The notes: generated by a model not told the origin, from the sequence alone. A DNA stretch of 64,000 nucleotides from an uncultured Nitrospirales bacterium (GCA_964542245.1 CAZITU010000001.1:22627-86626), one strand, 5' to 3'; shown: positions 5,335 to 64,000, counted from the first letter of the stretch. Numbers and translations are program-made.

Positions 5335-5464
5335 GCCCAGACACCTCGGCGTGCAACCGTTAGTGACGGCGAGCACAGTATCCTACATTTTCACGGAGGC
5401 ATGCAAGGCGGTTCCGGGCTGAGAACGTGGGGACCATTTGATCGGACCTTCGCGTGTTGTTACA

Positions 5465-25769: not shown

Positions 25770-26048
25770 ATGGCACATAAAAAGGGACAGGGCGCGTGCC
25801 GGAACGGGCGGGACAGCAACCCGCAGTACCTCGGCGTGAAATGCTACGGTGGGGAAACCGTGCCGGGCGGGAGCATCATCGTCCGCCAGCGCGGCACGAA
25901 GTTCCAACCAGGGTTTAATGTCGGCCGAGGGAAGGATGATACGCTGTTCGCCAAGATTGCAGGCACCGTGAGGTTCGAAGGCCCGAAGGACCGGCGGCGG
26001 GTGACCATCATTCCGGTCCAGGGCGCTCCAGCCGCCAAGGCCTCCTAA
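25770..26048 (+). CDS. rpmA: 50S ribosomal protein L27
   Basis: MAHKKGQG...[28 protein letters not shown] signature. Confidence 0.95.
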
Positions 26049-26072
26049 CCAACTCTTCGCGTCCGTCATTCC

Positions 26073-26110
26073 GCCCCTTGCTCGAGCTTGGAGTAAGGGG
26101 CTTTTTATTT
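26073..26110 (+). terminator. rho-independent terminator after rpmA
   Basis: Stem GCCCCTTGCTC / GAGTAAGGGGC (one G:U pair), 7-nt loop, followed by TTTTTATTT. Confidence 0.65.
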
Positions 26111-26121
26111 GGAGGTTGACC

Positions 26122-48888: not shown

Positions 48889-50312
48889 ACCGCTTTGAGC
48901 CTAAAGAAGGCGAAGAACGTCATCTTGAGCAGGAGCCACCCGTGGGCGAACCTCCGGATGTTCGTCGTCCCATAATACCGCTCCTGGTACCGGATCGGCA
49001 CTTCCAGAATCTTCAGGTTGAGCTTGGAGGCCCCGAACAGCAGGTCGAAGTCTCCGAACGGATCGAACTCGCCGAAGTAGCAGCGATTCTGCTCAATGCG
49101 ACGGTAGTCTTCGCGAAACAACGCCTTCGTCCCGCAGAGCGTGTCCTTGATCCGTTGGTTGAGCAGCCACGAAAACGCCATGCTGAAGAACTTGTTGCCC
49201 AACAGGTTGAGCGCCCGCATCGCCTCTTTCTCCATCGGATAGACCAGCCGGCAGCCGTTGATGAACTCCCCCTTGCCGCCGGCAATGGCCTGGTAGAACT
49301 TCGGCAGGTCTTCAGGGGGCATCGTCAGGTCCGCATCGAGAATCATGAAGATGTCGCCTGTGGCGTGGGCGAAGCCCATGCGCACGGCATCACCCTTGCC
49401 CTTGCCCTCCTGGACGAGGAGGCGAATGTCCCGTTGCGGGTACGCGCGGATCACGCGCTCGACTTCCTCCTTCGTACCGTCGGTGGAGTGCCCTTCCACG
49501 AAAATCATTTCCTGGCGCTTGCCGAAATACGGGGTCCGCTGGACGGCGGCCTCGATGTTCCCCCGTTCATTCCGGCAAGGGATCACAATGGAGACGGAGT
49601 GTTCCGCCTCGCCGCTGGGAGAGGACGGCCGGGCCACGACATAGTGGGACAAGCACGCCGCCCCCACCCCGGGCAAGAACGCGAGGAAGCGGTTGGCGAC
49701 CGCGGACAGCACCGGGACCCACTTGGGCAGCAACAGGCGACGTTCGGTCTTGACGACTTCAAAATCCGCCAGTTGGAGCAGATTGACGATGTCCGCCGGC
49801 GCCAGCCAGTTCTGATGCTGTTGCGGCATCTTCAAACCGAGCGACTCGGCCACGCGCAGGATCGGCTCCCAGAGGAAATTGTAATAGGAGATGATGAGGC
49901 GGGTTTGGGGGGCGCAACACCGCCGCAGATTCCGCAAGGCGGTCTCCACATCGAGCAGGTGGCCGACCACATCGGCCAGGATGATCACATCAAAGGGTTC
50001 CTCCAGATCGAGGTCCTCGACATCGCCCGTGCGAAACTCCAGGTGGGGATGGCGGCGCCGGGCCTCCGCGACCATCGCCTCGCTGAGATCGATGCCCAGA
50101 CCCCTCGCCGGCTTGACGGCCGCCAGCAAATCGCCCAGCCCGCAGCCGATTTCCAGAACACGGAGTCCTTCCGGCACCAGGAAGCGGAAGAAGCGCCGCT
50201 GGTCTTCGTAGTAATAACGGTTCTTCCGCTGCCAGCGCTCGCGGTCCGCGGCCAGCCGGTCGAAGCGCTCCCTGATGGCCTTCTTCTTGGCCTCGTCTCG
50301 AAAGCTCGTCAT
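48885..50312 (-). CDS. bifunctional class I SAM-dependent methyltransferase / family 2 glycosyltransferase fusion
   Basis: N-terminal VLEIGCGLGDL methyltransferase domain. C-terminal GT2 domain (VSIVIPCRNERGNIE ... ILDADLT). Start at MTSFRDEAKK, overlapping the asnB stop (ATGA). Confidence 0.8.
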   Translation of the reverse strand: MTSFRDEAKKKAIRERFDRLAADRERWQRKNRYYYEDQRRFFRFLVPEGLRVLEIGCGLGDLLAAVKPARGLGIDLSEAMVAEARRRHPHLEFRTGDVEDLDLEEPFDVIILADVVGHLLDVETALRNLRRCCAPQTRLIISYYNFLWEPILRVAESLGLKMPQQHQNWLAPADIVNLLQLADFEVVKTERRLLLPKWVPVLSAVANRFLAFLPGVGAACLSHYVVARPSSPSGEAEHSVSIVIPCRNERGNIEAAVQRTPYFGKRQEMIFVEGHSTDGTKEEVERVIRAYPQRDIRLLVQEGKGKGDAVRMGFAHATGDIFMILDADLTMPPEDLPKFYQAIAGGKGEFINGCRLVYPMEKEAMRALNLLGNKFFSMAFSWLLNQRIKDTLCGTKALFREDYRRIEQNRCYFGEFDPFGDFDLLFGASKLNLKILEVPIRYQERYYGTTNIRRFAHGWLLLKMTFFAFFRLKAV

Positions 50313-52321
50313 GCTTGGCAAGGCATCCCGGTGGAGGACTGCTTGTACTCGTCGAGCCACGCTTGGAACATCAGGATGTCCCACAGATGATACTGCCAAT
50401 CGCGCCGACCCGAGAGATGCTCGGCCCATTTTTCACGGATGGGGTCCGGTTGAAAAAAACCTTCCTCGCTCAGGCGTTTCTCAGCCAGAAGCGCCTCTGC
50501 CCATTCGCGCAGGGGTCCCCGCAGCCAACTATCAATCGGAACGGCGAAACCCATCTTGGGCCGGTCAAAGAAGGCCTCGGGCACGTACTTATACAGCACT
50601 TGCCGCAGCAGCCATTTCCCTTGACCGCCACGGATCTTCATGCGCATAGACAGCCGCCAAGCGAACTCCATCAGTCGGTGGTCCAGCAGCGGCACCCGCG
50701 CCTCCAGACCAAACCCCATGCTGGCCCGGTCCAGCTTGACCAGCAGGTCATCCGGCAAGTACGTCACGGTATCCAGGAACATCATTTGTTCCGTAAAATC
50801 CGGCAGCGTGGCCCACCGCGAACGATCCGTTACGGTCGTGGGCGGTTCGTCCGTCCCGATGACCGGGAGCTGGCCTTCCTTCCAATGGGAGACCAGTCCC
50901 AGATACATGGCCTCAGGGCCATCCGCTTCCAGGATCTCCGCGAGCTTGTGGAGCTTAGAGCCTGGAGTCCTCTGGCGCATCTCCGAAGGCAACAGAGAGG
51001 CGAGCGCCTGAAACGCCGACTCCCAATAGGAAGGCTTGAACGCGGTGACCGTCCGGGCTACCTGACGCCGGACCGGCTTCGGCACCCACCGAAGCCGCCG
51101 TCCAAGCCGTGCGCACCATGCGTGGCGGTTGTAGCCGGCGAACAGCTCATCACCGCCGTCGCCCGACACACACACGGTGACATGGCGCCGGGTCAACTGA
51201 CAGAGGAGGATGGTGGGCAGTTGAGACGAATCGGAAAACGGCTCATCGAAGAGGGTCGGGATCCGGGGAATCACGGCCAAGGCGTCGGCGGGACTCGTAT
51301 ACAGCTCCGTGTGGTCCGTGCCGAGATGCCGCGCCACCGCCCGGGCTTCAGGCGCCTCGTCGAACGCCTCCTCCCGGAACCCGATGGTAAAGGTCTTGAC
51401 CGGGCGATCGCTCTGCGCCTGCATCAGCGCCACCACGGTGGACGAGTCAATGCCGCCGGAAAGGAAAGCGCCCAGGGGCACGTCCGCAACCATGTGCGCC
51501 CGGACGGCTTCGCAAAGCAGGGCCTCCAGGTCATGCCCGGCTTCTTTCTCAGTCAGCGGCGCTCGTTCAGCGCTCCCCCGTTCCACCATCTCACGAGCCG
51601 ACCAGTACCGCACCGGTTTCCATGTCCCGGTCGGATCATCGGGATCCGGCGAAAACGCGCCCGGTCGGGCCATCAGCGTCGAGCGGACGGCCAGGAGGCA
51701 GCCGGGAAGCAGTTTGTAGACATTCCGATAGATGGAGAACGGCGCCGGGATGCAGTTGAACCGCAGGTAGAGAGGCAGCGCCTGGCGGTTGACCGCGCCC
51801 GCAAAGGCAGGGGAGGCTCGCAAGGCCTTCAATTCGGACCCAAACAGAAAGGTCGGACCGGCCCAGCCGAAGTAGAGCGGCTTGATCCCGAGCCGGTCTC
51901 GGACGAGGTACAGAGTCCGCGCTTCCCGATCCCAGAGACCGAACGCGAACATGCCGACAAACCGACGGATCGCCGCCTCCACACCCCAATGCTCGAAGGC
52001 GGCGAGCATGACCTCCGTATCGGAACGGCCCCGGAAGCCGTAGCCGGCTCGGCTCAGATCACGCCGCAGTTCCTCGAAATTGTAGACTTCCCCGTTGTAC
52101 GTGATCACATAACGCCCCGACCGGGAGGCCATCGGTTGATGGCCTTCCGGCGACAGATCAAGAATCGAGAGACGGGCATGGCCCAATGCCAACGGGATAT
52201 CCTTCTCACACCAGACGCCCGCATCGTCCGGCCCGCGAGAGCGGAGCGCCCCGACCATCCGCCAAGCGGTTTGCTCCAGGTCACCCTGGGGATCTCCCCA
52301 TACGCCGGCAATTCCGCACAT
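50309..52321 (-). CDS. asnB: asparagine synthase (glutamine-hydrolysing) family amidotransferase (WbpS-like context)
   Basis: N-terminal MCGIAG nucleophile, YNGEVYNF, and the PP-loop SGGIDSS. Located inside the glycan cluster. Confidence 0.88.
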   Translation of the reverse strand: MCGIAGVWGDPQGDLEQTAWRMVGALRSRGPDDAGVWCEKDIPLALGHARLSILDLSPEGHQPMASRSGRYVITYNGEVYNFEELRRDLSRAGYGFRGRSDTEVMLAAFEHWGVEAAIRRFVGMFAFGLWDREARTLYLVRDRLGIKPLYFGWAGPTFLFGSELKALRASPAFAGAVNRQALPLYLRFNCIPAPFSIYRNVYKLLPGCLLAVRSTLMARPGAFSPDPDDPTGTWKPVRYWSAREMVERGSAERAPLTEKEAGHDLEALLCEAVRAHMVADVPLGAFLSGGIDSSTVVALMQAQSDRPVKTFTIGFREEAFDEAPEARAVARHLGTDHTELYTSPADALAVIPRIPTLFDEPFSDSSQLPTILLCQLTRRHVTVCVSGDGGDELFAGYNRHAWCARLGRRLRWVPKPVRRQVARTVTAFKPSYWESAFQALASLLPSEMRQRTPGSKLHKLAEILEADGPEAMYLGLVSHWKEGQLPVIGTDEPPTTVTDRSRWATLPDFTEQMMFLDTVTYLPDDLLVKLDRASMGFGLEARVPLLDHRLMEFAWRLSMRMKIRGGQGKWLLRQVLYKYVPEAFFDRPKMGFAVPIDSWLRGPLREWAEALLAEKRLSEEGFFQPDPIREKWAEHLSGRRDWQYHLWDILMFQAWLDEYKQSSTGMPCQA

Positions 52322-52325
52322 CGGG

Positions 52326-53705
52326 TTACGTCCGCTCCGGAACAGGAACCGGTGAGCCCCGCATGGATCGGAAGACGCAGAGCGCACCGGCGGCAGCAAA
52401 AACGGTCAGGATCGGCTCAAGCGGCAGCCGATACTTCACGCCGACGACTGGGCCTGTAATGGCAAGAATGTAGAACCCGACGACGACCAGATACAGCAAG
52501 GCCCCGCTGACTATCAGACGGCGCCCGTCGCGGCACAGGAGCCCCCACACCTGCACGCCACGGACCACAATCGTCACGACGATCGCAGGAATCATCCATG
52601 CAAGGTAGGCGGTGTTGCCTGGATGGCTCAGAAAGTTCCAGACCTTTTCCAGCGACGTCTTGCCTGAAACCTCGTAGAACCTTGGTCGTTCTATGTTGCT
52701 GACCAACGGAACCGAGCTCAAGCTGGGGACGAACAGATTGACCATCACGCCGGCACCCCAGGCCTGAACCAGTTCTCCGAAACCCATTTCCCGCAACGCG
52801 CCGAGAGCGACTTCCATATGCTGCCTGCTGGATTCAAAGGGGTTTTGCGGTTGCCCCTGCTGCCCCTGCTGCCGATACTGAAGCTCCAGTCGGCGGCGCA
52901 TCTCGTCCTGGGTTTGCGTAAAAGGAATGCCGCGGGAGAATTCCCTGGCCAACGGCACGACCCAGTACAGACTGTGGGTGCCCCCCTGGCTCGTCAGGCT
53001 GAAATGTCCATAGGCAGCGGCATTTCTCACCATAAGAGGCCCGACCAGTACCACAAGAGGGACGAAACAGGCAACGACCACCCATCCCATGGCCTTGAGG
53101 CCGACTTTGTGGTGCCAGGCGGCAATCAGGACAGTCGCCAGCAGGAGTGGGACAAAGTAAAGCAGTAACGACCGGGTCAGCAAGGCCACGGCGGAAAACG
53201 CACCGGCCCACAGCGCATCCCGCGTGGTAGGTCGTCGAATGAACCGAGCCATCATCAGCAGATGGGCCGTAAACGGCACAAGGAACAGACTGTCGGGGAG
53301 GATCAGCGCAGCGTGTGCGATAAAATTCAGGTTGCACGCTGCCAAGAGCCCGGCGAGGAGGGCAAGGTCCCGATGGAACTGCGCCGCCAGGAGCCCGATC
53401 AGGAGGCATGTCAGCGAGTCCAGCGCGCATTGCCCCAGCACAGGCCAGATAGGACTCGTACCGAGAAACGTTCGAAAAGCAGCGAGATAGACGACGTAAA
53501 GAGGGGCTCGCTCAGTTTCAGCAATAAATCCCGCCAGAGTCTGGCGATTGAACCCGGCGGAAACGATCATATCGTCGGCGAGCTTTTCATAGAGGCGGGA
53601 ATCCGGCATATAGAGACTTTCGGTATGGGGAATGACGATTCCCAAATAACCCAGCCGCAGTACCAGAGCCAGGACAAGAATGGTCAGTGCGGTCGATCGC
53701 GTCAC
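52326..53705 (-). CDS. GT39/GT83-like (PMT_2/ArnT-like) integral membrane glycosyltransferase
   Basis: About 12 TM helices. The N-terminal loop with DSRLYEKLA resembles the acidic first-loop motif of GT-C transferases. Family assignment is by topology only. Confidence 0.55.
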   Translation of the reverse strand: MTRSTALTILVLALVLRLGYLGIVIPHTESLYMPDSRLYEKLADDMIVSAGFNRQTLAGFIAETERAPLYVVYLAAFRTFLGTSPIWPVLGQCALDSLTCLLIGLLAAQFHRDLALLAGLLAACNLNFIAHAALILPDSLFLVPFTAHLLMMARFIRRPTTRDALWAGAFSAVALLTRSLLLYFVPLLLATVLIAAWHHKVGLKAMGWVVVACFVPLVVLVGPLMVRNAAAYGHFSLTSQGGTHSLYWVVPLAREFSRGIPFTQTQDEMRRRLELQYRQQGQQGQPQNPFESSRQHMEVALGALREMGFGELVQAWGAGVMVNLFVPSLSSVPLVSNIERPRFYEVSGKTSLEKVWNFLSHPGNTAYLAWMIPAIVVTIVVRGVQVWGLLCRDGRRLIVSGALLYLVVVGFYILAITGPVVGVKYRLPLEPILTVFAAAGALCVFRSMRGSPVPVPERT

Positions 53706-53730: not shown

Positions 53731-54846
53731 TCACGGCCCTGAATTCTCCTGATGCAGCGCATCAAACGCGCGAGCCGCACGGCTCAGCGAGAAGTGCTCT
53801 TCAATGCGCCGGCGCGCCCGCTTCCCGCGCTCGGCTCGCTGCGCCGGCGGCTCATTCAGCAGGGTGGTCATCGCAGCGGCAAGCGCCGCCGGATCGCGCG
53901 GGGGAACGACCAGTCCGGTGTCACCGACGACCCGGGCCGCGTCGCCCACGTTCGTCGCCACGGGCGGCAGGCCGCACGCCATCCCTTCGGCAATGGTATT
54001 CGAGAAGCCCTCGCCGAATGCGGAACTGGACACCACGATGTCGCAGGCGGCCAGCAGGCCCGGCACATCGGAGCGCACGCCCAGGCGGTACAGGCCGGGG
54101 AGTTCAGGCAACTGCTCCGTGCCTTCCCCGACAGCCAACGCGCCGACGCCGGACAGTCGCCTGAAGGCGTCGAGAAAACAGGCCTGATCCTTCATCGGAT
54201 CCACCCGCGCCACCATCGCGAGGAGCGGCCTCGCCTGATCAATACCCAGTTCGGCTCTGACGCGCGTCCGGCCGGTCTCGTCCGGACAAAACCGCGCCGT
54301 GTCGATGCCGTTGTCAATGACGTCAAAGCGCCGCGTCCGGTACCCGATCCGCCGATGATAGTCACGGCCGCTCTCCGAGTTTGCGATGATCGCATCCGGC
54401 ACGTGCGACAGACGCGCGCAGGCACGGACCGCCAGGCGAAACGACCACCCATACAGGCCAGGGTCCATATCGGAGCAGCGGATTCCCCAGTACAGGCGGG
54501 TCCGACGCCTTCGGCCGGAAAGGGTCAACGCCAAGGCCGCCATAAGGTTGGCATGATACATCCAGCCCTGAATGACGTGGGGGCGCTGGGCGCGGATCAA
54601 CCGGGTCAAGCGGATGAGGGCTCCGACGCTGGGGCGACCACGGGTCATGCCGAGGTCCGTGACGTCCACCCCTGAGGCTCGCAACCGATCGCACGTGGCG
54701 CCGCCCGGCAGGAGACTGACCACCCGCGCCGATGGCGCACCCGGCCGCTTCGCCAGCACCAGGGAGGCCAACATGCTCTCGGCGCCACCGGTCTGGAGCG
54801 TGGTGATGACGTGGAGCACTTTTCGGTCGGTGTCTGCTACACTCAC
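53731..54846 (-). CDS. glycosyltransferase family 4
   Basis: N-terminal VITTLQTGGAE and C-terminal SSAFGEGFSNTIAEGMACGLPPVATNVG EX7E motif. Confidence 0.8.
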   Translation of the reverse strand: MSVADTDRKVLHVITTLQTGGAESMLASLVLAKRPGAPSARVVSLLPGGATCDRLRASGVDVTDLGMTRGRPSVGALIRLTRLIRAQRPHVIQGWMYHANLMAALALTLSGRRRRTRLYWGIRCSDMDPGLYGWSFRLAVRACARLSHVPDAIIANSESGRDYHRRIGYRTRRFDVIDNGIDTARFCPDETGRTRVRAELGIDQARPLLAMVARVDPMKDQACFLDAFRRLSGVGALAVGEGTEQLPELPGLYRLGVRSDVPGLLAACDIVVSSSAFGEGFSNTIAEGMACGLPPVATNVGDAARVVGDTGLVVPPRDPAALAAAMTTLLNEPPAQRAERGKRARRRIEEHFSLSRAARAFDALHQENSGP

Positions 54847-54849
54847 GGC

Positions 54850-55827
54850 GTGAATTTAAAAGCCTTGGCCAAGCGCAGCGTCGTGATGACGTGCGCCTAC
54901 TACCTCTTCGATGACTGGCGAGTCCGGCGAAGATGGGCAGCCGGCAGACACGTTACGAAATCGGGCACCCGCCACGCGAAGCTGGACCTTCAGGACTCCC
55001 TCGCCTATATCGAGAAAATTCACGCCGACTACCTCCGCTACGCCGGGCTCGATTGCTTCACCGGCACGGTCGCGGAGATCGGCCCAGGCGATAACTTCGG
55101 CCTTGCTCTCCTGTTGCTCGGGCACGGCGCCGACGAAGTGCATGCGATCGATCGGTTCTGGCCGCAACGCGACCCGGCGCGCCAGGCCGCCATCTATGAG
55201 GCGCTCGCGGAGCGACACGGCCTCCAGAACCGCTTCGACGGCCCGCCTGCCGAGAGCACGTTACGCGGCCTTCACTACTACCGGGGGCAAGCGGCAGAAA
55301 CCTTCTTCCGGAAAACACCGCTTCGGTTCGACGCCATCCTCTCGCGCGCGGTCATCGAACATCTCTACGACCCCACGGCGGCGCTCTCCGACATGCTGGG
55401 AGCGCTGCGGCCCGGCGGCATCATGGTCCACCGCATCGACCTGCGCGACCACGGTATGTTCGCGGGGCACCATCCGTTGACCTTCCTGACCATCCACGAG
55501 TCCCTCTACCGGCGCATGACCCGAGGCTCGGGCCGGCCCAACCGAGCGCTGCTGCCGGTGTACCGGGACTGGCTGCGGTCATCAGGCGCCTCCGGCAGCC
55601 TCGAGATCACGCGACTGGCCGGAGTGGAGCAAGAGGTCGGCCCGGCGCTCTGGGAGGATCTCGACGCTACGCTGAAGGCCCGCGCCGTCCATCACGTCGC
55701 CCGCGTTCGCACTGCTCTCGCCGCCCCGTTCAAGGACTGGCCCGACGCCGACCTTGCGGTCAGCGGCTGTCTGCTGGTGGCGCGGAAATCGAAGTGGCAA
55801 TCCAGCTTAATCTGGGTCAAACGATGA
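54850..55827 (+). CDS. class I SAM-dependent methyltransferase (only plus-strand gene in the cluster)
   Basis: VAEIGPGDNFG motif I, VIEHLYDP, LRPGGIMVHRID. The start is uncertain (GTG 54811, GTG 54850 or ATG 54886). Confidence 0.62.
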   Translation: MNLKALAKRSVVMTCAYYLFDDWRVRRRWAAGRHVTKSGTRHAKLDLQDSLAYIEKIHADYLRYAGLDCFTGTVAEIGPGDNFGLALLLLGHGADEVHAIDRFWPQRDPARQAAIYEALAERHGLQNRFDGPPAESTLRGLHYYRGQAAETFFRKTPLRFDAILSRAVIEHLYDPTAALSDMLGALRPGGIMVHRIDLRDHGMFAGHHPLTFLTIHESLYRRMTRGSGRPNRALLPVYRDWLRSSGASGSLEITRLAGVEQEVGPALWEDLDATLKARAVHHVARVRTALAAPFKDWPDADLAVSGCLLVARKSKWQSSLIWVKR

Positions 55828-57642
55828 CGCATAGTCCCGTTTGAACTGCGGGTTCTGCTCCTCCTTGCACAGGAAGCAGGCGCCGATGGCCAGAGCTTCG
55901 ATTTCCGTCCCCATGAAGCAGCGGAAGGCGTCCTCCGGTGTGCACACGATCGGCTCGCCGCGCACGTTGAAGCTGGTGTTGACCAGCACCGGGCAACCGG
56001 TGCGCTTCTTGAACAGCGTGAGGAGGCGGTGGAAAGCCGGATTTGTCTCGGCATGGACCGTCTGTATCCGCGCCGAGTAGTCCACGTGGGTCACCGCCGG
56101 GATTTCGGAACGCGGCACCTTGAGCTTATCGATGCCGAACAACCGCTGCTCCTGCCCGGTCATGGACCGCCGCCTACGCCCGGCCACATCGGCGACCAGG
56201 AGCATGTAAGGACTGTCCACATCGAGATCAAACCAATCCCGGAGATCCTCTCGCAGGACTGCCGGCGCGAAAGGCCTGAATGACTCACGGTATTTCACCT
56301 TGAGGTTCAGTACCGATTGCATTGTGGGTGAGCGCGCATCCCCCAGGATTGACCGTGTCCCGAGCGCCCGAGGCCCGAACTCCATCCGGCCCTGAAACCA
56401 CCCCAGCGCCTTGCCGTCGGCGAGAGCCTCCACGGCCGCCAAAAACAAAGTGTCGTCGTTGAGAACGGAAAACCGCGCCCCTGCCACCGACAGCCGGCGC
56501 TCGATATCGGCCTGTGAGAAGCACGGGCCAAGATATGACCCGCACATGCCGTCTTGAGTCACATTGGGTCGGCGCGGTTGTCCCAGATACAGGTGATAGG
56601 CCGCCAGCGCTGCTCCCAATGCCCCGCCGGCGTCGCCCGCCGCCGGCTGGATCCACAGGCGCGAGAACCGGCCGTCGCGCAAGACTTTCCCATTGGCCAC
56701 ACAATTGAGCGCGACGCCGCCGGCGAGACAGAGATTCTTGAGGCCGGTCTCGGCGGCGATGCCGCGTGTCAAACGCAAGATCGCTTCCTCAAGCACTGTC
56801 TGGATCGACGCTGCCAGATCCATGTGCCGCTGCGTCAAAGGTTCGTCAGGCCCTCGGGCGGGACCCCCGAACAAGGCATCAAACTTGTCATTCGTCATCC
56901 TGAGTCCGGTGCAGTAGTCGAAATACGAAAGGTCCAGGCGAAACGACCCGTCCGGTTTGAGATCAATCAGGTGGTCAAAGATCAGTTGAGCGTATTTCGG
57001 CTCACCGTAAGGAGCCAGACCCATGGCCTTGTACTCACCCGAGTTGACCTTGAACCCCGTGTAGTACGTGAACGCCGAGTAGAGCAGGCCGAGCGAATGG
57101 GGAAAGTGGATCTCCTTCGTGATCTGCAGCTGGTTGCCGCAACCTATGCCGAAAGAGGTCGTTGCCCACTCGCCGACACCATCCATCGTCAGGACCGCCG
57201 CCTGCTCGAACGGCGAAGCAAAGAAGGCGCTTGCTGCGTGGCTTTGGTGATGCTCGGCAAAGAGCAGTTTTTTCTCGCTGTCGAAGTATGGCGAGAAACG
57301 GCTGAGCTCGTCGCGCAACAGCGCCTTCTGGAAGAGTTTCTCCTTGATCCACAGCGGCATCGCCATGCTGAACGAGCGGTAGCCCTGAGGGGCCAGCGCG
57401 ACATAGGTTTCAAGCAGGCGTTCGAACTTGAGGAACGGCTTGTCGTAGAAGACGACGTAATCCACGTCGTCAAGCGAGACCCCCTCCTCCGCCAGACAAT
57501 AGGCGATCGCGTGGCGCGGGAATCGGGCATCAAACTTCTTACGGGTGAAGCGCTCTTCCTGGGCCGCCGCCGCCACTTCACCGTCGCGGACCAGCGCCGC
57601 GGCGCTGTCGTGGTAGAAGGCCGAGATGCCGAGTATACGCAT
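55807..57642 (-). CDS. carbamoyltransferase (NodU/CmcH/SxtI family)
   Basis: MRILGISAFYHDSAAALV...EERFTRKK N-terminal ASKHA-like domain, and C-terminal YrdC/Kae1-like region with NTSFNVRGEPIV. Confidence 0.9.
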   Translation of the reverse strand: MRILGISAFYHDSAAALVRDGEVAAAAQEERFTRKKFDARFPRHAIAYCLAEEGVSLDDVDYVVFYDKPFLKFERLLETYVALAPQGYRSFSMAMPLWIKEKLFQKALLRDELSRFSPYFDSEKKLLFAEHHQSHAASAFFASPFEQAAVLTMDGVGEWATTSFGIGCGNQLQITKEIHFPHSLGLLYSAFTYYTGFKVNSGEYKAMGLAPYGEPKYAQLIFDHLIDLKPDGSFRLDLSYFDYCTGLRMTNDKFDALFGGPARGPDEPLTQRHMDLAASIQTVLEEAILRLTRGIAAETGLKNLCLAGGVALNCVANGKVLRDGRFSRLWIQPAAGDAGGALGAALAAYHLYLGQPRRPNVTQDGMCGSYLGPCFSQADIERRLSVAGARFSVLNDDTLFLAAVEALADGKALGWFQGRMEFGPRALGTRSILGDARSPTMQSVLNLKVKYRESFRPFAPAVLREDLRDWFDLDVDSPYMLLVADVAGRRRRSMTGQEQRLFGIDKLKVPRSEIPAVTHVDYSARIQTVHAETNPAFHRLLTLFKKRTGCPVLVNTSFNVRGEPIVCTPEDAFRCFMGTEIEALAIGACFLCKEEQNPQFKRDYASSFDPD

Positions 57643-57649
57643 AGATGCC

Positions 57650-57799
57650 TCAGAAAATCGTATAGATGAAAGGCGCGACCGCCGACCCCTGGGTCAGCAC
57701 GATCAGGCCACCCAACATCAGCAACATCAGAATGACTGGCAGGAGCCAGTACTTTTTCCGCACGCGCAGGAACGCCCAAAATTCAGCCAGAAAAGACAT
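57650..57799 (-). CDS. DUF5989-like small membrane protein (SxtK-like, 49 aa); not in the supplied track
   Basis: I translated this ORF by hand: MSFLAEFWAFLRVRKKYWLLPVILMLLMLGGLIVLTQGSAVAPFIYTIF. It lies between the carbamoyltransferase (7-nt gap) and the SxtJ-like gene (11-nt gap). Confidence 0.6.
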   Translation of the reverse strand: MSFLAEFWAFLRVRKKYWLLPVILMLLMLGGLIVLTQGSAVAPFIYTIF

Positions 57800-57810
57800 G
57801 TGTTCCCCTG

Positions 57811-58227
57811 CTAAAACTGATTCGTCATCGTCTCCGGAGACGGACCCGGCGGTTCACGTTTAATCCAGTAACTGTCGGCTTCTTGGTCGCGCGACAACCT
57901 GAGCGGGTCCTTGCCAAACAGGCGCATGAGCAGACCTGTGGGCGTGACCACCAGATAGAAAAGGACGCCCATCACGATCGGCGTCGTCACCTTGTTGAGC
58001 AGCAGCCCGAACCGAGTCCAAAGCCGGTTCAACGGCGCGAGAAGCGACGGCCTGGCCAAGGAGGCGATGAGAAACGCGCCGGCGACGACGAGCGCCCAGA
58101 CGCGCGGCGTCCCGCCACGGAGCAGAGGCCAGAGGCCACCCGCCAGAAAGACGGCCGCAAATACCAGACCGAAGGACCGGTCAGACGAGCCGTTAAGTTC
58201 TATGTGTCCTGGACCTGTTTTCATCAC
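57811..58227 (-). CDS. SxtJ family membrane protein
   Basis: SDRSFGLVFAAVF...LNRLWTRFGLLLNKVTTPIVMG...LFGKDPLRL...SYWIKREPPGP matches my recollection of SxtJ-family proteins that accompany carbamoyltransferases. Confidence 0.7.
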   Translation of the reverse strand: MMKTGPGHIELNGSSDRSFGLVFAAVFLAGGLWPLLRGGTPRVWALVVAGAFLIASLARPSLLAPLNRLWTRFGLLLNKVTTPIVMGVLFYLVVTPTGLLMRLFGKDPLRLSRDQEADSYWIKREPPGPSPETMTNQF

Positions 58228-58258: not shown

Positions 58259-59338
58259 CTAAGTCCACTTCTTAATCAGCCTATTAAGAATTTTGCCAAA
58301 TGCGACATCGGCAATCTCAAGCGTATACCGCTCCGGCAGAAGATTTCGTCGCAGGGAAGAGCGCGGACAGGGTGCGACCGCACGCATCGCCGCCACGAAG
58401 GGTTCCCCTGCCTCCGCCACGGTCACCGCGCCGGGCAAGGTCTCGGCAGCGACCTCAAGAATGCCGCCGGCTTCCGGAGTTGCGATGACCGGCGTGCCGC
58501 AAGCAAGCGCCTCCAGCGCCGCATTGGGCATTCCTTCCCAGCGCGAAGGCAGCAGAAAGGCGTCGGCGCCGGCGTAAGCGGGCCAGGGAACCGGATCAAA
58601 CCCCGCAAAGCGGACTCGCCGCTCCACGCCGAGTCGGGCGACCAGCGCGGCCAGCGCACCTGCTTCGGGGCCTTCGCCGAAGATCGTCAGGTGGGGCTCC
58701 CCCGGCACCTTGGCCAACATCTCGAGCAACCGGTCGAAGCCCTTCTGTGGAGTCAACCGACCGGCCGCCGCAAAACGGACTCCGTCACCGGGGATGCGCC
58801 GGGGGACAGCCGCAAGTCGCCGTATGGCGACGACATCCACTGGATTGGCAAGACAGTACAGCCGCGCCTCCGGAACCGAGAAATCACGACGCATCTCCTC
58901 CAGCATCATCCGTGATTGGCAGAGTACGCCATCCGCGTGGGGATAGAACAGTCGGTAGCCGAGATGGAACAGGGTCGGCCATGGCGTGGTCGGCAAGCTA
59001 CGCGAGGGAGTATTGGCTTCGCGCACGAGAATGCGTGGCTTCGGGGTGAGGAAGGGACGCAGCGCGAGGAGTGCAAGGTTAATATAGCCGAGCGTGGAGA
59101 CGATCACCGCCGGTCGCAGCCGACGGAGCGCGGTCACCAGGGCAGCAACCGCGTAGCGAAGCCGCGGTCGCTGCAGATCGTGAACGGCAATATCCGAAGG
59201 AAGAGCCGTCTTGAGAGGTCCCCGCCCATCGAGGACCATGACTTCCGGCCGGAAGCGGTCGCGATCCAGGCCCGCCGCCAGCGACACCAGGACCCGTTCC
59301 GCCCCGCCGCCCGCGAACGAGGGAAGCAGGAAGACCAC
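58259..59338 (-). CDS. glycosyltransferase family 4
   Basis: N-terminal FLLPSFAGGGAERV and C-terminal PSRWEGMPNAALEALACGTPVIAT motif. The start is uncertain: GTG 59338 avoids overlapping the upstream gene, and the track start is 59410. Confidence 0.75.
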   Translation of the reverse strand: MVFLLPSFAGGGAERVLVSLAAGLDRDRFRPEVMVLDGRGPLKTALPSDIAVHDLQRPRLRYAVAALVTALRRLRPAVIVSTLGYINLALLALRPFLTPKPRILVREANTPSRSLPTTPWPTLFHLGYRLFYPHADGVLCQSRMMLEEMRRDFSVPEARLYCLANPVDVVAIRRLAAVPRRIPGDGVRFAAAGRLTPQKGFDRLLEMLAKVPGEPHLTIFGEGPEAGALAALVARLGVERRVRFAGFDPVPWPAYAGADAFLLPSRWEGMPNAALEALACGTPVIATPEAGGILEVAAETLPGAVTVAEAGEPFVAAMRAVAPCPRSSLRRNLLPERYTLEIADVAFGKILNRLIKKWT

Positions 59339-59346
59339 CCGAGGGA

Positions 59347-60543
59347 TTACGCCCGAACCAGTTTCGTCCACACTGCCAACAGATCCGCCGCACGGTCCGG
59401 GCCATGACACAGCCGGGCGACGTGTTGTCGCGCTGCTTCGCTCATAACGGCCAACCGGCTCCGGTCATCACCCAAACCGACGAGCTCGCGGGCCAGGGCT
59501 CCGGCATCGAACGTGGTCTGCAAGATACCGGTTTCGCCGTTTTGCACGAAGCCATCCCATCGGCCGACGGTCAGCACCGGACGCCCAGCGGCAAGCCCCT
59601 CGATAATGTCCCGCCCCCACGGATTGTCTTCGCGTGTTGGCTTGACCAATACATCGCAGGCAGCCAGCACACGTTCCGGGTCCGGCACATGACCAAGGAA
59701 CAGAAACAGATCACCGACGCCGACTTCCTTGACATAGTCTGCAAGAGTGCCTCCACGCCGGCCGATCCTGCCTAAAAGGCCCGGTAGTGACCGTGACAAT
59801 GCCATATGCCCGGCCACCACGAAGAGGAAATCACGCCTGCCCAAGGCGGCCAGCTCGACGGCAATCTCCACCAGACGGTCGGTCCCACGGACCCATGCGA
59901 AGTTGCTGAGCGAGGCGATCTTCAACCGTCCGTCGCGCGGAACGGACTCGTGCGGCAGGACCGTCTCCAGCAGAGCAGCAGCAATGTTGTAGACGACCGT
60001 GCCGTTAGGACGCCCTCCCATCTTGGCGAATCCGCTCTGTTCATTTTCGGTGATGAAAACCAGGTGGTCAACCGCGCGAGAAATGGTCCGCGCGTGATAT
60101 CGCGTGAATACATTGTCGTACTCCCAACAAATCGTGCGAATGTGCATACTGAATGGGACGGAGGTTCGCCTCCTCAACCAAGACGCCAGGAGGAACAGGC
60201 TCTCGTGATTGAAGTGGACCACATCAAAGCGCTTATTGACCTGATGGGCCAGCTCCGTTCTGAACGATTCGGCCCTCCAGAACCGCCAAAGGAAGTAGGC
60301 GTGTTCGAGCATATTGCGGGAAATTGTTGGAAGCGGGCTGACATTGGGCAGCTCCGGCACAATCTGGCAGGGAATACCGCGCTTCCGATACCGTTCTTGT
60401 ATCGGACCGTGCCTGCGACACCACACCTCCGCATAGACAGCCGACCGGTCCATGTGGTTCAGCGATTCGTAGAGGCTGCGCGAGGAGCCTCCGTAGCCTC
60501 CCTCGATGTCCAGGCACAAGACGCGCACAGGTTCAACTTTCAT
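59347..60543 (-). CDS. glycosyltransferase family 4
   Basis: C-terminal GT-B fold pattern ...LVKPTREDNPWGRDIIEGLAAGRPVLT. 4-nt overlap with the WbqC-like gene. Confidence 0.78.
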   Translation of the reverse strand: MKVEPVRVLCLDIEGGYGGSSRSLYESLNHMDRSAVYAEVWCRRHGPIQERYRKRGIPCQIVPELPNVSPLPTISRNMLEHAYFLWRFWRAESFRTELAHQVNKRFDVVHFNHESLFLLASWLRRRTSVPFSMHIRTICWEYDNVFTRYHARTISRAVDHLVFITENEQSGFAKMGGRPNGTVVYNIAAALLETVLPHESVPRDGRLKIASLSNFAWVRGTDRLVEIAVELAALGRRDFLFVVAGHMALSRSLPGLLGRIGRRGGTLADYVKEVGVGDLFLFLGHVPDPERVLAACDVLVKPTREDNPWGRDIIEGLAAGRPVLTVGRWDGFVQNGETGILQTTFDAGALARELVGLGDDRSRLAVMSEAARQHVARLCHGPDRAADLLAVWTKLVRA

Positions 60544-61244
60544 GCCGCCACCACACTTTTGGAAATCAACTCCGCGGTCGCTGACAAGCCGATCCGGAGC
60601 AAAGGATCCACGATAGAAAGCCCTGCTTCAAATGTCGCTCGACCTTGGTCGTATCGCGGATGCAAGAAATTAACATACCGAAAGCCAAGCCCGGCCTTCC
60701 TATATTTTTCAGGGTCCTGGTAGTCGGCAGCCCCTTTGCCGGAAAGGTACGTTGCTGTTGGGTGAATGGTCGCTACCAGAGAGACCAGTCGGTCATCTCT
60801 CCTCTTACCGCCGACGTCCATATCCGACGAAGCCAAGAAGCGACAGCGCAGGTTCATCTCTCGGCAGAGATTCTCCACCAGATACCGGTTAATGGCTGCA
60901 AGGTTAGCTTGGGGAACGCCGAGAAGCAGATCCTTGAGCTTAGGCCAGACAGCTCGGAAAGCAGGCGTGTGAGAATACAGGTTCCGCAACGAATCAAGAT
61001 GACTATTGGGCCAATCCGATACAGCCGGGCGCACCGTATGAATCCCGTCTCCAAAGCTGTAGGACACTGGGATGGTCAACCACCCCGGCCCATTCGGTCC
61101 CAGTATTTTGACTCGGTTTATGTAACTGTTTTTGCTGTACTGGGCGTCATCCAGAAAGATGAACGCATCGGCAGCGGCGATCTTGTGGAAATAGCCCAGC
61201 CATGGGAGATAGTTCGGCTGATGAATCGCAACTGTTGTTTCCAT
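60540..61244 (-). CDS. WbqC family protein
   Basis: The N-terminus VAIHQPNYLPWLGYFHKIAAADAFIFLDDAQYSKNSYINR is characteristic of WbqC-like proteins of O-antigen clusters. Confidence 0.8.
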   Translation of the reverse strand: METTVAIHQPNYLPWLGYFHKIAAADAFIFLDDAQYSKNSYINRVKILGPNGPGWLTIPVSYSFGDGIHTVRPAVSDWPNSHLDSLRNLYSHTPAFRAVWPKLKDLLLGVPQANLAAINRYLVENLCREMNLRCRFLASSDMDVGGKRRDDRLVSLVATIHPTATYLSGKGAADYQDPEKYRKAGLGFRYVNFLHPRYDQGRATFEAGLSIVDPLLRIGLSATAELISKSVVAA

Positions 61245-61246
61245 GT

Positions 61247-62257
61247 TCAGTTGCGACTATCCAAGGCCCCAAATCTCCGACGATACAGAACCTCCATCTC
61301 CTCCGAAGAGAGATCATCAGGCGCCCTGATTTCCCATGTCTCGTCGTTCACGATAGCGTAACTCGACTGGGGCAGAAAGCCAAACTTCCGCTTCTGGGAA
61401 AAGGCCCCTCTCATCCCGTCGATTGCCATTCCTCTTTCTGCACAAGATTGAATGACTCCAAGAATGACCGCTCCTGATGCGTTGTTGGGAAACGGCTTGT
61501 ACAGATTGAAAAGATACACCGCATTTTTGTTCTTTTCATCCACAGCCCATAGGCCAAGGCCCACGTCAATACCCTGGAAGCTAACCTTAACGCAATTTAG
61601 CATTCCCTTTGCGTCAATCAATCTCAGCATTGCCAGGGCAGATTCTCTGTACTTCGGATCACCGTAAATACATGACTTGCCTCTGCGAATGAAGCTCCTC
61701 GCCGTATGCTCCATATACGAAACGCACAGGGACTCCCACGCACCATCTCGCGCATCTGTACCATAATCCATCTGGAATCGCCGGAGCGTGTATCTGACCT
61801 CCTTCCGCCTACTAGGGCTCAACGTCATCAGGTAGTCCTCAAAGCTACAATATCTCGGTACTACCCAGTACTGGTTATATGGCACATCCCACCACCTGCA
61901 GGATTCAGGCAGATACGGCAACGGGTCCTGATCCCAGGAAAGCAATCGAAAGCGAAACCCGCCCGTTTTCAGAAATTCGAAAATGTCCCTCTCCCCACCA
62001 GAAGGTCCTAAAAATCCGTTTCTTTCGTTATAATAAAGACCACCATAGAAAGAGAGCGTTCCGTTCACCATCCCGGCCGGAAGTATGGTCCCGGTTGTCC
62101 TGTTTACAATAAAAAAAGGCTTCATGCCGGAAATTTCCGATAACGATACTCTGAGCTCCCAATCCGAAAAGACACTCGATTCGCGACGGGATTGAACCCA
62201 TAGTTTCTCGCAGGCATTCATCGCACACGTTATCTCAATATTCTCATCGTGTCCCAT
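61247..62257 (-). CDS. GNAT-fold acyltransferase, FemAB/BioF2-like (Acetyltransf_6-like)
   Basis: The C-terminal region ...YLFNLYKPFPNNASGAVILGVIQSCAERGMAIDGMRGAFSQKRKFGF resembles FemAB-like GNAT domains. Markedly lower GC than upstream genes. Confidence 0.55.
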   Translation of the reverse strand: MGHDENIEITCAMNACEKLWVQSRRESSVFSDWELRVSLSEISGMKPFFIVNRTTGTILPAGMVNGTLSFYGGLYYNERNGFLGPSGGERDIFEFLKTGGFRFRLLSWDQDPLPYLPESCRWWDVPYNQYWVVPRYCSFEDYLMTLSPSRRKEVRYTLRRFQMDYGTDARDGAWESLCVSYMEHTARSFIRRGKSCIYGDPKYRESALAMLRLIDAKGMLNCVKVSFQGIDVGLGLWAVDEKNKNAVYLFNLYKPFPNNASGAVILGVIQSCAERGMAIDGMRGAFSQKRKFGFLPQSSYAIVNDETWEIRAPDDLSSEEMEVLYRRRFGALDSRN

Positions 62258-62299
62258 GGCCCCGGCTATTTCCTCAACTTTCCCGAACCTCCACAGAGA

Positions 62300-63007
62300 T
62301 CATCCAGACTTCCCAAATCCCATAGCCTCGTAAATTACGATCGTGTTCTTAAAACCCTTGAGTTCGTGCAACGCTCTCAACCATGGAACGCTCTCAATAT
62401 ATTGGCGATGTTCTCTGGGATTATAATAGCAAAGCCGAAGAGTCCTCGGATTAGACTTGAGGCTGTGTTCAATATTTTGCATGACAGACCTAAGGGTATT
62501 TATCCCAAACGGATTTGCGATGAGAATGATCGTTTCATCACGAATCTCAACAGAACATGCATCCTCGTTTATAAATTCTATTTTTGACTTGTCGAACCGA
62601 AAGCTCCTCGCATTTCTGATACAATAGTCGTACGCGACATCGTGTAGTTCAATCCCCCTGGACCGCCTCGCGTAAGATCTCGCGAAAACAAAGACGGCCC
62701 GTCCCGTTCCACATCCCACATCCATGAAGACATCTTCATGAGTCGGGCACAAAAACGTCCTCAGGCGGACCAACCAGACCACGGGCGTTGGTATGTTGGC
62801 CTTCGAATCTCGAAACTTCCCTCCAATCCAGTCGCCAGGCTTGTATTTGGCGACCAGGGATGTCTCTATGCCGTATCCGAGATCGAAGAGCGCATCTATC
62901 ACGCGGTTGCCACGCTGATATGCCGTTTCAACGACCTGCCATAGTTTTCCTCGAAGAGAAAGCGGAAGAATGTGCCATAGGTCGGAAATAAGGTGGCGTG
63001 GCATCAC
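62300..63007 (-). CDS. class I SAM-dependent methyltransferase
   Basis: VFMDVGCGTGRAVFVFA motif I and downstream GIELH acidic loop. Low-GC gene. Confidence 0.7.
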   Translation of the reverse strand: MMPRHLISDLWHILPLSLRGKLWQVVETAYQRGNRVIDALFDLGYGIETSLVAKYKPGDWIGGKFRDSKANIPTPVVWLVRLRTFLCPTHEDVFMDVGCGTGRAVFVFARSYARRSRGIELHDVAYDYCIRNARSFRFDKSKIEFINEDACSVEIRDETIILIANPFGINTLRSVMQNIEHSLKSNPRTLRLCYYNPREHRQYIESVPWLRALHELKGFKNTIVIYEAMGFGKSG

Positions 63008-63015
63008 CTGATCAC

Positions 63016-64000
63016 TTAGTTAGCCTGAGTCCAGCGATCGAAGTAGTGGGCGATATTTTCCGTCAGATTCTCGGTCTCCAAGATTTCTACGAACTCGCCA
63101 AACTGTCGCTTAATGGCGATTCTATCTTGCTCTTGGAGCTCAGTGGAGCGGTAAACGCTCACCTTGTAGTCAAGGAGGCGCGCCTCAGGTCCTATCAGGT
63201 TGTTGGCCTTAGCATGAATGAATGCGCGCATGACATGAGATTCGGAGTCCTGAAATTCACTGGAACACCACGCCGCAATGAGCTTGCACGTCGGTTTTTC
63301 TCGTCGAAAGTGGGTGGCGTAATCGGAGATATCGCTGATCATGTTGAAAATCTCGTCCTGGTGGAATCGTGCGAAGGCAAACAGCCGCTCGGCTTTGTCT
63401 TCCACGAGCATATGCAGGTGCTTGGTATCGGCACTGATGGGAGTCAGGTTGAGAACGCCGCTTTCCCCGCGAATGTGATTCAATCGGGACTGGGAGGTAA
63501 TGCATAAGCGTCGGGCCTGTAACGTGGCTCTATCGGTTCTGACATGCACAAGTTTAGCGGATTCCTGAACGCAGATCTCCAGCGCTGTGGTTTCCGTCAA
63601 AATCCTCACGGAATCATGATTGAGCAGAGCGCGGAGGCGACGGATAAAGCGAGGAGCGCCCCCCATGGGATACCTGGCCCGAGGTGCGCCGACCTTCACG
63701 AAGCGCCAAAACCACATGAGACTTATCACCAGAGGCACAAAGACTGTTTGCTTTGGATTCCTGAGTACTTCCTGGAGGCCAGCTCGCGAAAAGAAACGCC
63801 CCAATGCAGGAAAGAGGACAAGGTTCCACACGTGTGCGCAAGGTGTCCTGGTGGGCATCGGTCCGTATTTCGGCAGAATCCAAAAGGGCTCGGGTTGCAT
63901 GCGCGTCATCGGGATGCCAAGGACATTTTCAATATACCGGTAGCCTTTCCGCCAGTGCCTCATGATGTGGGCGCCGATTTCGACCTCTTCAAACCCGAAC
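63016..64000 (-). CDS. hypothetical protein, possibly the C-terminal part of a FAD/NAD(P)-dependent oxidoreductase (amine-oxidase-like); 5' end beyond the window
   Basis: The frame stays open upstream of the ATG at 63963 to the window edge (..FGFEEVEIGAHIMRHW..). YPMGGAPRFIRRLRALL...VRILTETTALEI...RRLCITS resembles the substrate-domain pattern of flavin amine-oxidase-like enzymes. The assignment is weak. Confidence 0.4.
   Translation of the reverse strand, partial: FGFEEVEIGAHIMRHWRKGYRYIENVLGIPMTRMQPEPFWILPKYGPMPTRTPCAHVWNLVLFPALGRFFSRAGLQEVLRNPKQTVFVPLVISLMWFWRFVKVGAPRARYPMGGAPRFIRRLRALLNHDSVRILTETTALEICVQESAKLVHVRTDRATLQARRLCITSQSRLNHIRGESGVLNLTPISADTKHLHMLVEDKAERLFAFARFHQDEIFNMISDISDYATHFRREKPTCKLIAAWCSSEFQDSESHVMRAFIHAKANNLIGPEARLLDYKVSVYRSTELQEQDRIAIKRQFGEFVEILETENLTENIAHYFDRWTQAN

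Follow-up and report, generated by a model that had tools for sequence, protein, structure and literature searches.

Identification of the cassette and its protein families

The subject of this analysis is a set of three adjacent minus-strand genes, coding for an SxtJ-family membrane protein (hereinafter J), a DUF5989 microprotein (K) and a carbamoyltransferase (CT), which lie in a 64,000-nucleotide stretch of DNA (the window; GCA_964542245.1 CAZITU010000001.1:22627-86626) from a Nitrospirales bacterium and which might together serve to carbamoylate an acceptor outside the cytoplasm. The source is an uncultured metagenome-assembled genome (MAG) of about 62% G+C, and the nearest relatives of these genes are found in alphaproteobacterial MAGs. 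In window coordinates the cassette comprises the following features:

57811-58227, minus strand: SxtJ-family membrane protein J, 138 amino acids (aa) from a GTG start; Pfam PF19588
57800-57810, minus strand: J-K spacer of 11 nucleotides (nt) with AGGGGA, read from the sequence
57650-57799, minus strand: DUF5989 microprotein K, 49 aa; Pfam PF19451 over its full length
57653-57670, minus strand: codons of the C-terminal hexapeptide of K, F44-I-Y46-T-I-F49, a match to FXYXXF
57643-57649, minus strand: K-CT spacer of 7 nt, read from the sequence, with GAGG overlapping the stop codon of K
55807-57642, minus strand: predicted NodU/CmcH/TobZ-type O-carbamoyltransferase CT, 611 aa; Pfam PF02543 and PF16861

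An initial annotation, made from the sequence alone, had reported three open reading frames (ORFs) separated by gaps of 11 and 7 nt; all three are located where it placed them and the 49-aa product is identical to the sequence it gave. The 49-aa gene is also called and tagged as DUF5989 in public metagenome gene calls of the identical locus, and identical proteins are encoded at the same locus in several metagenome assemblies. In the public gene call J starts at an ATG at 58224, giving a protein of 137 aa (P0001). Each spacer contains a purine-rich element of the Shine-Dalgarno type, AGGGGA before K and GAGG before CT, suggesting that translation may be coupled across both junctions.

The family assignments proposed in that annotation were recovered for all three proteins, with Pfam matches above the respective cutoffs and far beyond chance. 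J matches the SxtJ family (PF19588) with E=6.9e-12 and 46.4 bits against a cutoff of 24.4, its RefSeq homologues are named 'SxtJ family membrane protein', and its gene stands, in keeping with that family, next to genes for a carbamoyltransferase and a DUF5989 protein. K matches DUF5989 (PF19451) over residues 1-49 of 49, with E=1.2e-26 and 92.9 bits against a cutoff of 27. CT contains the Kae1-like Carbam_trans_N domain (PF02543; E=3.5e-107) followed by the YrdC-like Carbam_trans_C domain (PF16861; E=3.5e-71), each matched over its full length, and comparison with solved structures recovered NovN (E=2e-95), GdmN (2e-93) and TobZ (2e-81), the whole range being 2e-95 to 1e-80. Its translation includes EFGPRALGTRS, which matches the GPRALG.RS motif cited for SxtI in the saxitoxin literature. 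Taken together, these similarities predict that CT is an O-carbamoyltransferase of the NodU/CmcH/TobZ type. Equivalence to NodU itself was ruled out, the score against the NCBIfam model NF041651 being 150.4 bits where the cutoff is 1000. Members of the TobZ family form carbamoyl-AMP from carbamoyl phosphate and ATP; CT lacks transmembrane (TM) segments, and this ATP- and carbamoyl phosphate-dependent chemistry implies that it would act in the cytoplasm.

Phyletic distribution and conservation of the cassette

Both small proteins belong to large families, with 10,081 representatives of 50%-identity clusters for SxtJ (E<=1e-3) and at least 6,635 90%-identity clusters for DUF5989. Owing to its divergence, the broad SxtJ alignment (A1) could not serve as the seed of a genome scan, for which the DUF5989 alignment was taken instead: one genome per species was scanned with the DUF5989 seed together with a K peptide pattern, giving at least 592 positive species, the best 80 loci of which (L005-L084) were analysed. 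Counts of the K motif in these loci are partly circular, K having been the seed, and are corrected by a second scan of metagenome loci seeded on J only.

The order J-K-CT, on a single strand and with tight spacing, is found in 73 of the 79 assessable loci of the K-anchored scan. Four further loci have all three genes in another arrangement, including an sxt-like CT-J-K order in Nitrospira (L022), and two have K without J or CT. In the J-anchored sample K follows J in all 76 loci with room for it, and CT follows in 65 of 66, the exception being a decayed locus. The hosts include many Alphaproteobacteria (about 22 of them SAR11 genomes), Beta- and Gammaproteobacteria, Nitrospira, Acidobacteriota and Planctomycetota, as well as the Sinorhizobium meliloti plasmid pSymB. 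On plasmids a CT homologue is present in 439 records and J or K in only 42-44; the plasmid-borne CTs with at least 60% identity (45 records, mainly Sinorhizobium/Ensifer) come from the same taxa as the J/K carriers, as matched by taxon. On a Planctomyces plasmid a CT-J-K set is located in an exosortase/exopolysaccharide locus, where RefSeq names the two small products 'SxtJ family membrane protein' and 'DUF5989 family protein'. Thus, the co-occurrence of the three genes across genomes, on which the initial annotation had made its proposal depend, is close to invariant.

Glycosyltransferase families account for only about 4 of the 143 genes that immediately flank the triad in the 80 genomes, most neighbours being unrelated housekeeping genes, and phmmer searches detected a glycan-type gene of any kind within 8 kb in 17 of the 80 loci. 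The cassette is therefore self-contained, and its position within a glycan cluster in the window is unusual, although that position is still informative as to the likely acceptor there. These numbers bear on an argument of the initial annotation, namely that the position of the triad among glycosyltransferases argues for small proteins that are generic and not specific to toxin synthesis. The conclusion stands, as the families are large and the triad is nearly invariant across phyla, but the reasoning from the local neighbourhood does not, since it works only by way of the broader survey.

The same annotation considered the window a tractable setting for functional work, which an uncultured MAG is not; the same cassette is, however, present in S. 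meliloti 1021, at about 482-486 kb of pSymB (L004 9794-13996), where a divergent anchored SGNH gene is followed by J, K and CT. That copy adjoins a histidine kinase/response regulator pair and a peptide ATP-binding cassette (ABC) transporter and does not belong to a polysaccharide cluster; in PLSDB the record is unannotated at this position. In the roughly 22 Pelagibacteraceae loci (e.g. L009-L011, L016 and L019) the J, K and CT genes overlap or lie 1-3 nt apart, and in several of them a low-G+C gene for an anchored SGNH protein comes directly after the triad. Retention of the cassette in the streamlined genomes of SAR11 suggests an important and undescribed envelope modification.

The C-terminal motif of the DUF5989 microprotein

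K is composed of an N-terminal amphipathic helix ending in RVRKK, a single TM helix and a short C-terminal tail. Its lysine and arginine counts favour a cytoplasmic N-terminus under the positive-inside rule, and the C-terminus, with Tyr46, is predicted to be extracytoplasmic. In DUF5989 alignments the TM helix is variable and conservation is concentrated in the tail that follows it, SA.APFIYT.F-COOH. All 72 complete K proteins of the J-anchored sample, which was blind to K, end in F-[IV]-Y-T-[ILV]-F; the Planctomyces protein, recovered by plain tblastn, has the same ending, and the protein of the window ends in FIYTIF-COOH. Among the 10,097 ORFs in the fetched loci, 89 end in F.Y..F where about 0.23 would be expected by chance, and these comprise 82 K proteins, four C-termini of AlgI/PatA-like MBOAT proteins (FIYFDF or FIYFQF) and three apparent chance cases.

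The microprotein DltX (49 aa, one TM helix; C-terminal FIYNEF in L. plantarum) has at its extracellular C-terminus an FXYXXF motif that has been described as an 'acyl shuttle': its tyrosine accepts D-alanine from DltB, an MBOAT protein, and passes it to the SGNH protein DltD (PMC12148441, PMC13653941). PatA-type MBOATs possess a C-terminal FIYANF of their own, placed after a peripheral helix and the final TM helix, and hand the acetyl-tyrosine on to the SGNH protein PatB (PMC12148441, PMC13653941). MBOAT-SGNH pathways outside Dlt are described as lacking a DltX-like microprotein (PMC12148441). K combines the length of 49 aa, the single TM helix, an FXYXXF motif at the extreme C-terminus and an invariant tyrosine, all of which are hallmarks of DltX. 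The initial annotation had termed both small proteins accessory factors, which is apt insofar as they are membrane partners of carbamoylation but undersells K, whose invariant FIYTxF ending matches the shuttle motif of DltX and the MBOATs.

Members of DUF5989 are also encoded in settings other than the canonical triad. A Thalassospiraceae MAG (L049 4483-9246, minus strand) encodes, divergently from a canonical J-K-CT set, an operon in which the gene of a divergent second DUF5989 protein (43 aa, ending in FLYALF; Pfam E=8e-8) comes first, before three SGNH genes and that of an MBOAT with its own FIYFDF ending; going by its sequence, the DUF5989 protein would be a DltX-like microprotein within a Gram-negative MBOAT-SGNH operon. 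At another locus (L076 9992-14586) a solo DUF5989 gene is followed by an SGNH gene and lies beside an MBOAT and another SGNH gene, with no J or CT nearby. That a short DltB-like MBOAT there might obtain its shuttle motif from this solo protein was considered and rejected: the MBOAT is frameshifted in the assembly and its true end is FIYFDF. At a third locus (L038 10001-10150) a DUF5989 gene occurs alone, without SxtJ or CT nearby.

The SxtJ-family protein

Hydropathy and the family alignment indicate that J has three hydrophobic helices, with an amphipathic helix between the second and third, followed by a conserved C-terminal tail of the form GKDPLRL...SYWI.R.PPGP...QF-COOH. Lysine plus arginine counts slightly favour an orientation with the N-terminus outside and the C-terminal tail inside (8.5 versus 5.6). 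Three natural J-K fusions (P0255, P0392 and P0228) connect the J tail to the K N-terminus through four to six residues, and weakly support the placement of these two termini on the same side of the membrane. In an AlphaFold2 model of one such fusion the mean pLDDT (predicted local distance difference test) score is 80 and the first two TM helices are very confident; a Foldseek search of the PDB with this model yielded no match. From these features we infer that the tail of J serves to dock CT and that J is the membrane partner of K.

Apparent K-CT fusions (P0455, P0465 and P0466) were considered as Rosetta-stone evidence and rejected as chimeras or frameshift read-throughs. More generally, database proteins that join DUF5989 to CT or truncated SxtJ segments (P0455, P0465, P0466, P0457 and P0464) are read-throughs or assembly chimeras, and caution is needed with the domain-architecture counts that metagenome catalogues give for such tiny genes.

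An anchored SGNH protein as recurrent fourth partner

Unbiased clustering of the neighbouring genes revealed a single family that recurs beside the triad in many lineages, a GDSL/SGNH protein of 330-440 aa with AlgX-type similarity. Its gene is adjacent to the triad in 33 of the 80 loci and within 8 kb in 39, often at a distance of a few bases. The block I serine and the block V histidine are invariant, and in 41-45 of 48 copies a hydrophobic anchor precedes the catalytic domain. Given this N-terminal TM anchor, the protein is predicted to be extracytoplasmic; PatB, AlgJ and DltD have the same anchored arrangement and act outside the cytoplasmic membrane (PMC12148441). An MBOAT, on the other hand, is found near the triad in only 4 of the 80 loci. 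In the saxitoxin cluster too, sxtK is followed by sxtL, which codes for a GDSL lipase similar in size to this SGNH partner, and sxtI, sxtJ, sxtK and sxtL share one class of phylogenetic origin. The trio of genes put forward in the initial annotation is real, but the recurrent anchored neighbour equivalent to SxtL had been missed.

The nearest CTs outside the clade associated with J and K are those of Ralstonia megaplasmids (58% identity; 133 records) and of Acinetobacter (53%). In both lineages the CT (52-58% identity) precedes a gene for an SGNH protein that belongs to the family found beside the triad (profile E=1e-15 and 2e-13) but lacks the N-terminal anchor. K is absent beside these CT-SGNH pairs, and Ralstonia keeps a 68-aa one-helix remnant of J. 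With these two lineages as the control, a CT-SGNH pair has K and a full-length J at its side if its SGNH protein lies outside the membrane, but lacks both if that protein is soluble. This contrast, drawn from two lineages, is what a trans-membrane shuttle predicts. The loci concerned, on a Ralstonia solanacearum megaplasmid (L086 5989-10977) and in Acinetobacter baumannii (L087 3162-8896), combine the CT and the soluble SGNH protein with an 'iron-containing redox enzyme' and exporters, and look like small-molecule clusters; that of Ralstonia additionally encodes a second, shorter carbamoyltransferase.

Potential mechanism and alternative explanations

Based on these observations we tentatively propose, with confidence that falls somewhat below even, that J, K and CT form the conserved core of a cassette that carbamoylates an envelope or other extracytoplasmic acceptor by means of a carbamoyl-tyrosine shuttle. 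CT would generate carbamoyl-AMP in the cytoplasm from carbamoyl phosphate and ATP, while being docked at the membrane by the conserved, presumably cytoplasmic, tail of J. The carbamoyl group would then be loaded on the invariant Tyr46 in the FIYTxF ending of K, which might serve as a covalent tyrosine shuttle at the outer face of the membrane in the manner of DltX or of the C-terminal arm of PatA-type MBOATs, a role suggested by its motif, size, architecture and gene neighbourhood. J is the only candidate for the conduit through which the group could pass across the membrane. Where the SGNH protein is present, this AlgX/PatB/DltD-like and SxtL-like enzyme may take over the group on its catalytic serine and deliver it to the final acceptor, an aryl carbamate being chemically competent to carbamoylate a serine nucleophile. 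In the window the most likely acceptor would be the methylated, 6-deoxyhexose-containing polysaccharide of the surrounding cluster. That J, DUF5989 and CT, together with the anchored SGNH protein where it occurs, amount to a third class of trans-membrane group-transfer machinery beside the MBOAT-SGNH and AT3-SGNH systems is a more far-reaching claim, which we regard as possible but doubtful.

Several observations weigh against this proposal. CT is predicted to be cytoplasmic and the tyrosine of K to lie outside, with no known route between the two: the cassette has no MBOAT- or AT3-like conduit, J is small with three TM helices, and the family alignment shows no conserved polar or catalytic residue in these helices. 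An enzyme that could unload the K tyrosine is not found nearby in the window and in about half of the loci; there is no SGNH gene in the 64-kb window nor in the 9 kb beyond it on the extended contig, and about half of the surveyed loci have none within 8 kb. Carbamoyl-serine enzyme intermediates are, moreover, usually long-lived, carbamates being inhibitors of serine hydrolases. K had no match to the Pfam DltX model at E<=10, in a search where the HMMER speed filters drop most matches above about 0.1, and comparison of the K profile with MBOAT C-termini was not significant beyond 'QGS..FIY', so that the likeness of K to DltX and the MBOATs lies at the level of motif and architecture and is not one of demonstrated homology. 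As to topology, the J-K fusions are singletons on short contigs in which the stop codon is replaced by W or Y, possibly through sequencing errors, and in the AlphaFold2 model, which offers predicted topology only, the C-terminal tail of K has a pLDDT below 50.

The main rival, which is essentially the view of the initial annotation, holds that J and K do no more than tether or orient the soluble CT at the inner face of the cytoplasmic membrane, where it would carbamoylate its substrate, a glycan linked to undecaprenyl or some other molecule bound to the membrane, prior to export; the K tail would then be a protein or lipid contact and not a covalent carrier, and the adjacent SGNH proteins would have independent O-acetyl or esterase functions. 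We consider this rather unlikely, even though it fits with CT as a cytoplasmic ATP-dependent enzyme of the TobZ/NovN family, with the lack of an evident conduit for transfer across the membrane, and with the long, conserved and probably cytoplasmic J tail ending in QF-COOH, which could dock CT. It also accommodates the roughly half of loci where no SGNH gene is nearby, and the window itself, where the cluster products look cytoplasmic except for the Wzy_C, WecA-like and PMT_2 membrane proteins and no SGNH protein is encoded. What it leaves unexplained is the invariant tail after the TM helix of K with its exact C-terminal FXYXXF, the identity of the sole enriched neighbour as an anchored and catalytically intact AlgX-like SGNH protein, the absence of K beside soluble SGNH partners, and the DUF5989 paralogues in MBOAT-SGNH operons; furthermore, one TM helix would suffice for tethering, and two dedicated proteins are hard to justify.

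Two other schemes dispense with a shuttle. CT could act directly on its substrate, with J, K and the SGNH protein as a separate module that removes or relocates the carbamoyl group or regulates CT. The saxitoxin literature annotates SxtL as decarbamoylating and, in some reviews, sxtJ and sxtK as 'regulatory', and the Dlt system has an esterase, DltE, that binds DltX at its C-terminal motif (PMC13653941). Those annotations of SxtL and sxtJ/sxtK are, however, predictions without experiments, and the SGNH family matches a transferase-type domain, that of AlgX. J and K are also kept with CT in 73 of 79 loci, even where an SGNH gene is lacking, and are therefore tied to CT and not to the SGNH protein, all of which makes an editing or regulatory module improbable. 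Still less probable, in our estimate, is a role in transport, with J and K, genetically coupled to CT, as a small exporter or flippase that moves the carbamoylated product or a precursor. The two proteins are integral to the membrane and always co-encoded with CT, and the K-less Acinetobacter and Ralstonia clusters encode LysE or MFS exporters in their place; but J and K provide only four helices in total, without conserved charged or polar intramembrane residues, the J-K fusion model shows no structural similarity to any solved transporter in Foldseek, and neither the C-terminal tyrosine motif nor the SGNH association would be accounted for.

The surrounding polysaccharide cluster

Two genes border the cassette and belong to its context:

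58259-59410, minus strand: GT4 glycosyltransferase (Pfam), directly upstream, 31 nt before J
54811-55827, plus strand: convergent class I methyltransferase, its 3' end overlapping the 3' end of CT by 21 nt

The J-K-CT transcription unit ends at the convergent methyltransferase gene, and the same arrangement is seen in public copies of the locus. A Pfam scan of the neighbours delineated a surface-polysaccharide/O-antigen cluster on the minus strand, extending from about 35 kb to beyond the end of the window. It encodes ManB, ManC, a KpsF-like isomerase, a WbpM-like dehydratase, a Wzy_C protein and a WecA-like initiating transferase, along with epimerases/reductases, a GDP-mannose 4,6-dehydratase (Gmd), several methyltransferases and a fusion of a methyltransferase with a GT2 glycosyltransferase, two asparagine-synthase-like amidotransferases (AsnB), a PMT_2 (GT-C) membrane protein, four GT4 enzymes and WbqC. 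With its WecA-like initiator, Wzy_C-type protein, several glycosyltransferases and nucleotide-sugar genes, it has the make-up of an O-antigen or surface-polysaccharide cluster, and the placement of the triad inside a glycan cluster by the initial annotation is borne out by these Pfam-identified neighbours. Scans of the window revealed no MBOAT among the cluster genes, no toxin pathway and no sxtL-like gene.

The asparagine-synthase-like glutamine amidotransferases are encoded at 50309-52399 of the window and, past its end, at 4926-6785 of the extended contig (L170). The same cluster has at least four methyltransferases, a PIG-L deacetylase, a NodB-like protein of 246 aa and the PMT_2 GT-C protein (52326-53705). 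The glycan probably carries many decorations, some of them probably added on the periplasmic face. In the last part of the window (60001-64000) the G+C content falls to 0.53 and 0.51, against about 0.62 elsewhere in the window; this region, in which WbqC, a methyltransferase, a 336-aa protein without a Pfam match and the beginning of a 380-aa FAD-like protein are encoded, has the look of a part of the polysaccharide cluster that was acquired separately. The unannotated 336-, 380- and 246-aa neighbours are without a TM anchor and none of them is SGNH-like, the only match being a marginal one of the 380-aa protein to c15. Upstream of the cluster, a 523-aa ORF without a Pfam match (26008-27579, minus strand) is overlapped by a long ORF on the opposite strand, and either could be real.

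Functional implications

The association of the three genes is itself already known from the sxt literature and from Pfam and RefSeq names, to which the window adds a further copy. As judged from the literature that could be searched, the new elements are the recognition of the DltX/MBOAT shuttle motif on DUF5989, the extent of the cassette with its SGNH fourth gene, and the contrast with K-less soluble CT-SGNH pairs; literature searches on DUF5989 itself, and on any connection of acyl shuttles with carbamoylation, found nothing. DUF5989 emerges as a widespread candidate for a DltX-like microprotein outside Dlt, tied to a different donor enzyme. The survey places J and K in a large cassette family of wide phylogenetic range, for the most part without relation to toxins, and the puzzle of sxtJ and sxtK, now 18 years old, gains a specific and falsifiable mechanism, with Tyr46 as putative carbamoyl carrier and the SGNH protein as putative terminal transferase.

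If this mechanism is true, the acyl-tyrosine shuttle of Dlt and PatAB would extend to a new chemical group and a new class of donor enzyme, and free DltX-like shuttle microproteins would exist in Gram-negative bacteria, including SAR11 and rhizobia, where the literature states that they are lacking. Functions could then be assigned to SxtJ, SxtK and SxtL, and carbamoylation of envelope polymers would be a widespread, hitherto undescribed modification in abundant environmental bacteria. Even if it is wrong, the cassette marks out carbamoyltransferases tethered to the membrane as a subclass of their own, for which S. meliloti is a tractable model.

Comparison with known systems

TobZ, NovN, GdmN, NodU/NolO and WapO (PA5005) have the same two-domain fold and motifs as CT, and NodU and WapO, the latter acting on the lipopolysaccharide core, likewise modify glycans. 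These enzymes differ from CT in acting alone, without J and K partners, on soluble substrates or substrates at the cytoplasmic face.

The closest parallel in gene content is the sxtI-J-K(-L) segment of the saxitoxin cluster, which, like the cassette, has contiguous genes for a CT, an SxtJ-family protein and a microprotein, with lengths of about 611, 135 and 50 aa, respectively. SxtK is probably a member of DUF5989, judging by its size (54 aa; 162-165 bp) and its position after sxtJ. The sxtL gene beside the trio parallels the SGNH gene adjacent to the triad in 33 of the 80 surveyed loci. The gene order is I-J-K in sxt, against J-K-CT here, though the former is also seen in Nitrospira (L022) and Planctomyces; and the sxt genes belong to a toxin pathway, whereas the cassette of the window is set in a polysaccharide cluster without an sxtL-like gene. 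Homologues of sxtJ and sxtK are reportedly often neighbours of carbamoyltransferase genes. In the saxitoxin literature sxtJ and sxtK have only been 'hypothesised to work in conjunction' with SxtI, and the statement of the initial annotation that their roles are unassigned is correct.

The Dlt system (DltA/DltC, DltB, DltX and DltD) shares with the cassette a cytoplasmic adenylate-forming enzyme and a 49-aa single-TM microprotein ending in FIYxxF and, at the level of the family as a whole, an N-terminally anchored extracytoplasmic SGNH protein and, as proposed here, the transfer of an activated group to an envelope polymer. The differences are that the cassette has no MBOAT or carrier protein, SxtJ standing in the place of DltB, that its group would be carbamoyl and not aminoacyl, that its hosts are Gram-negative, and that the window encodes no SGNH protein.

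The PatA/PatB, AlgI/AlgJ/AlgX and WssH-type systems in turn share with K the succession of a peripheral or amphipathic helix, a TM helix and a C-terminal FXYXXF, and AlgX-like SGNH partners are common to these MBOAT-SGNH O-acetylation systems and the cassette. In the former the motif is fused to the MBOAT, while in the cassette it is found on a free microprotein and the donor would be a carbamoyltransferase.

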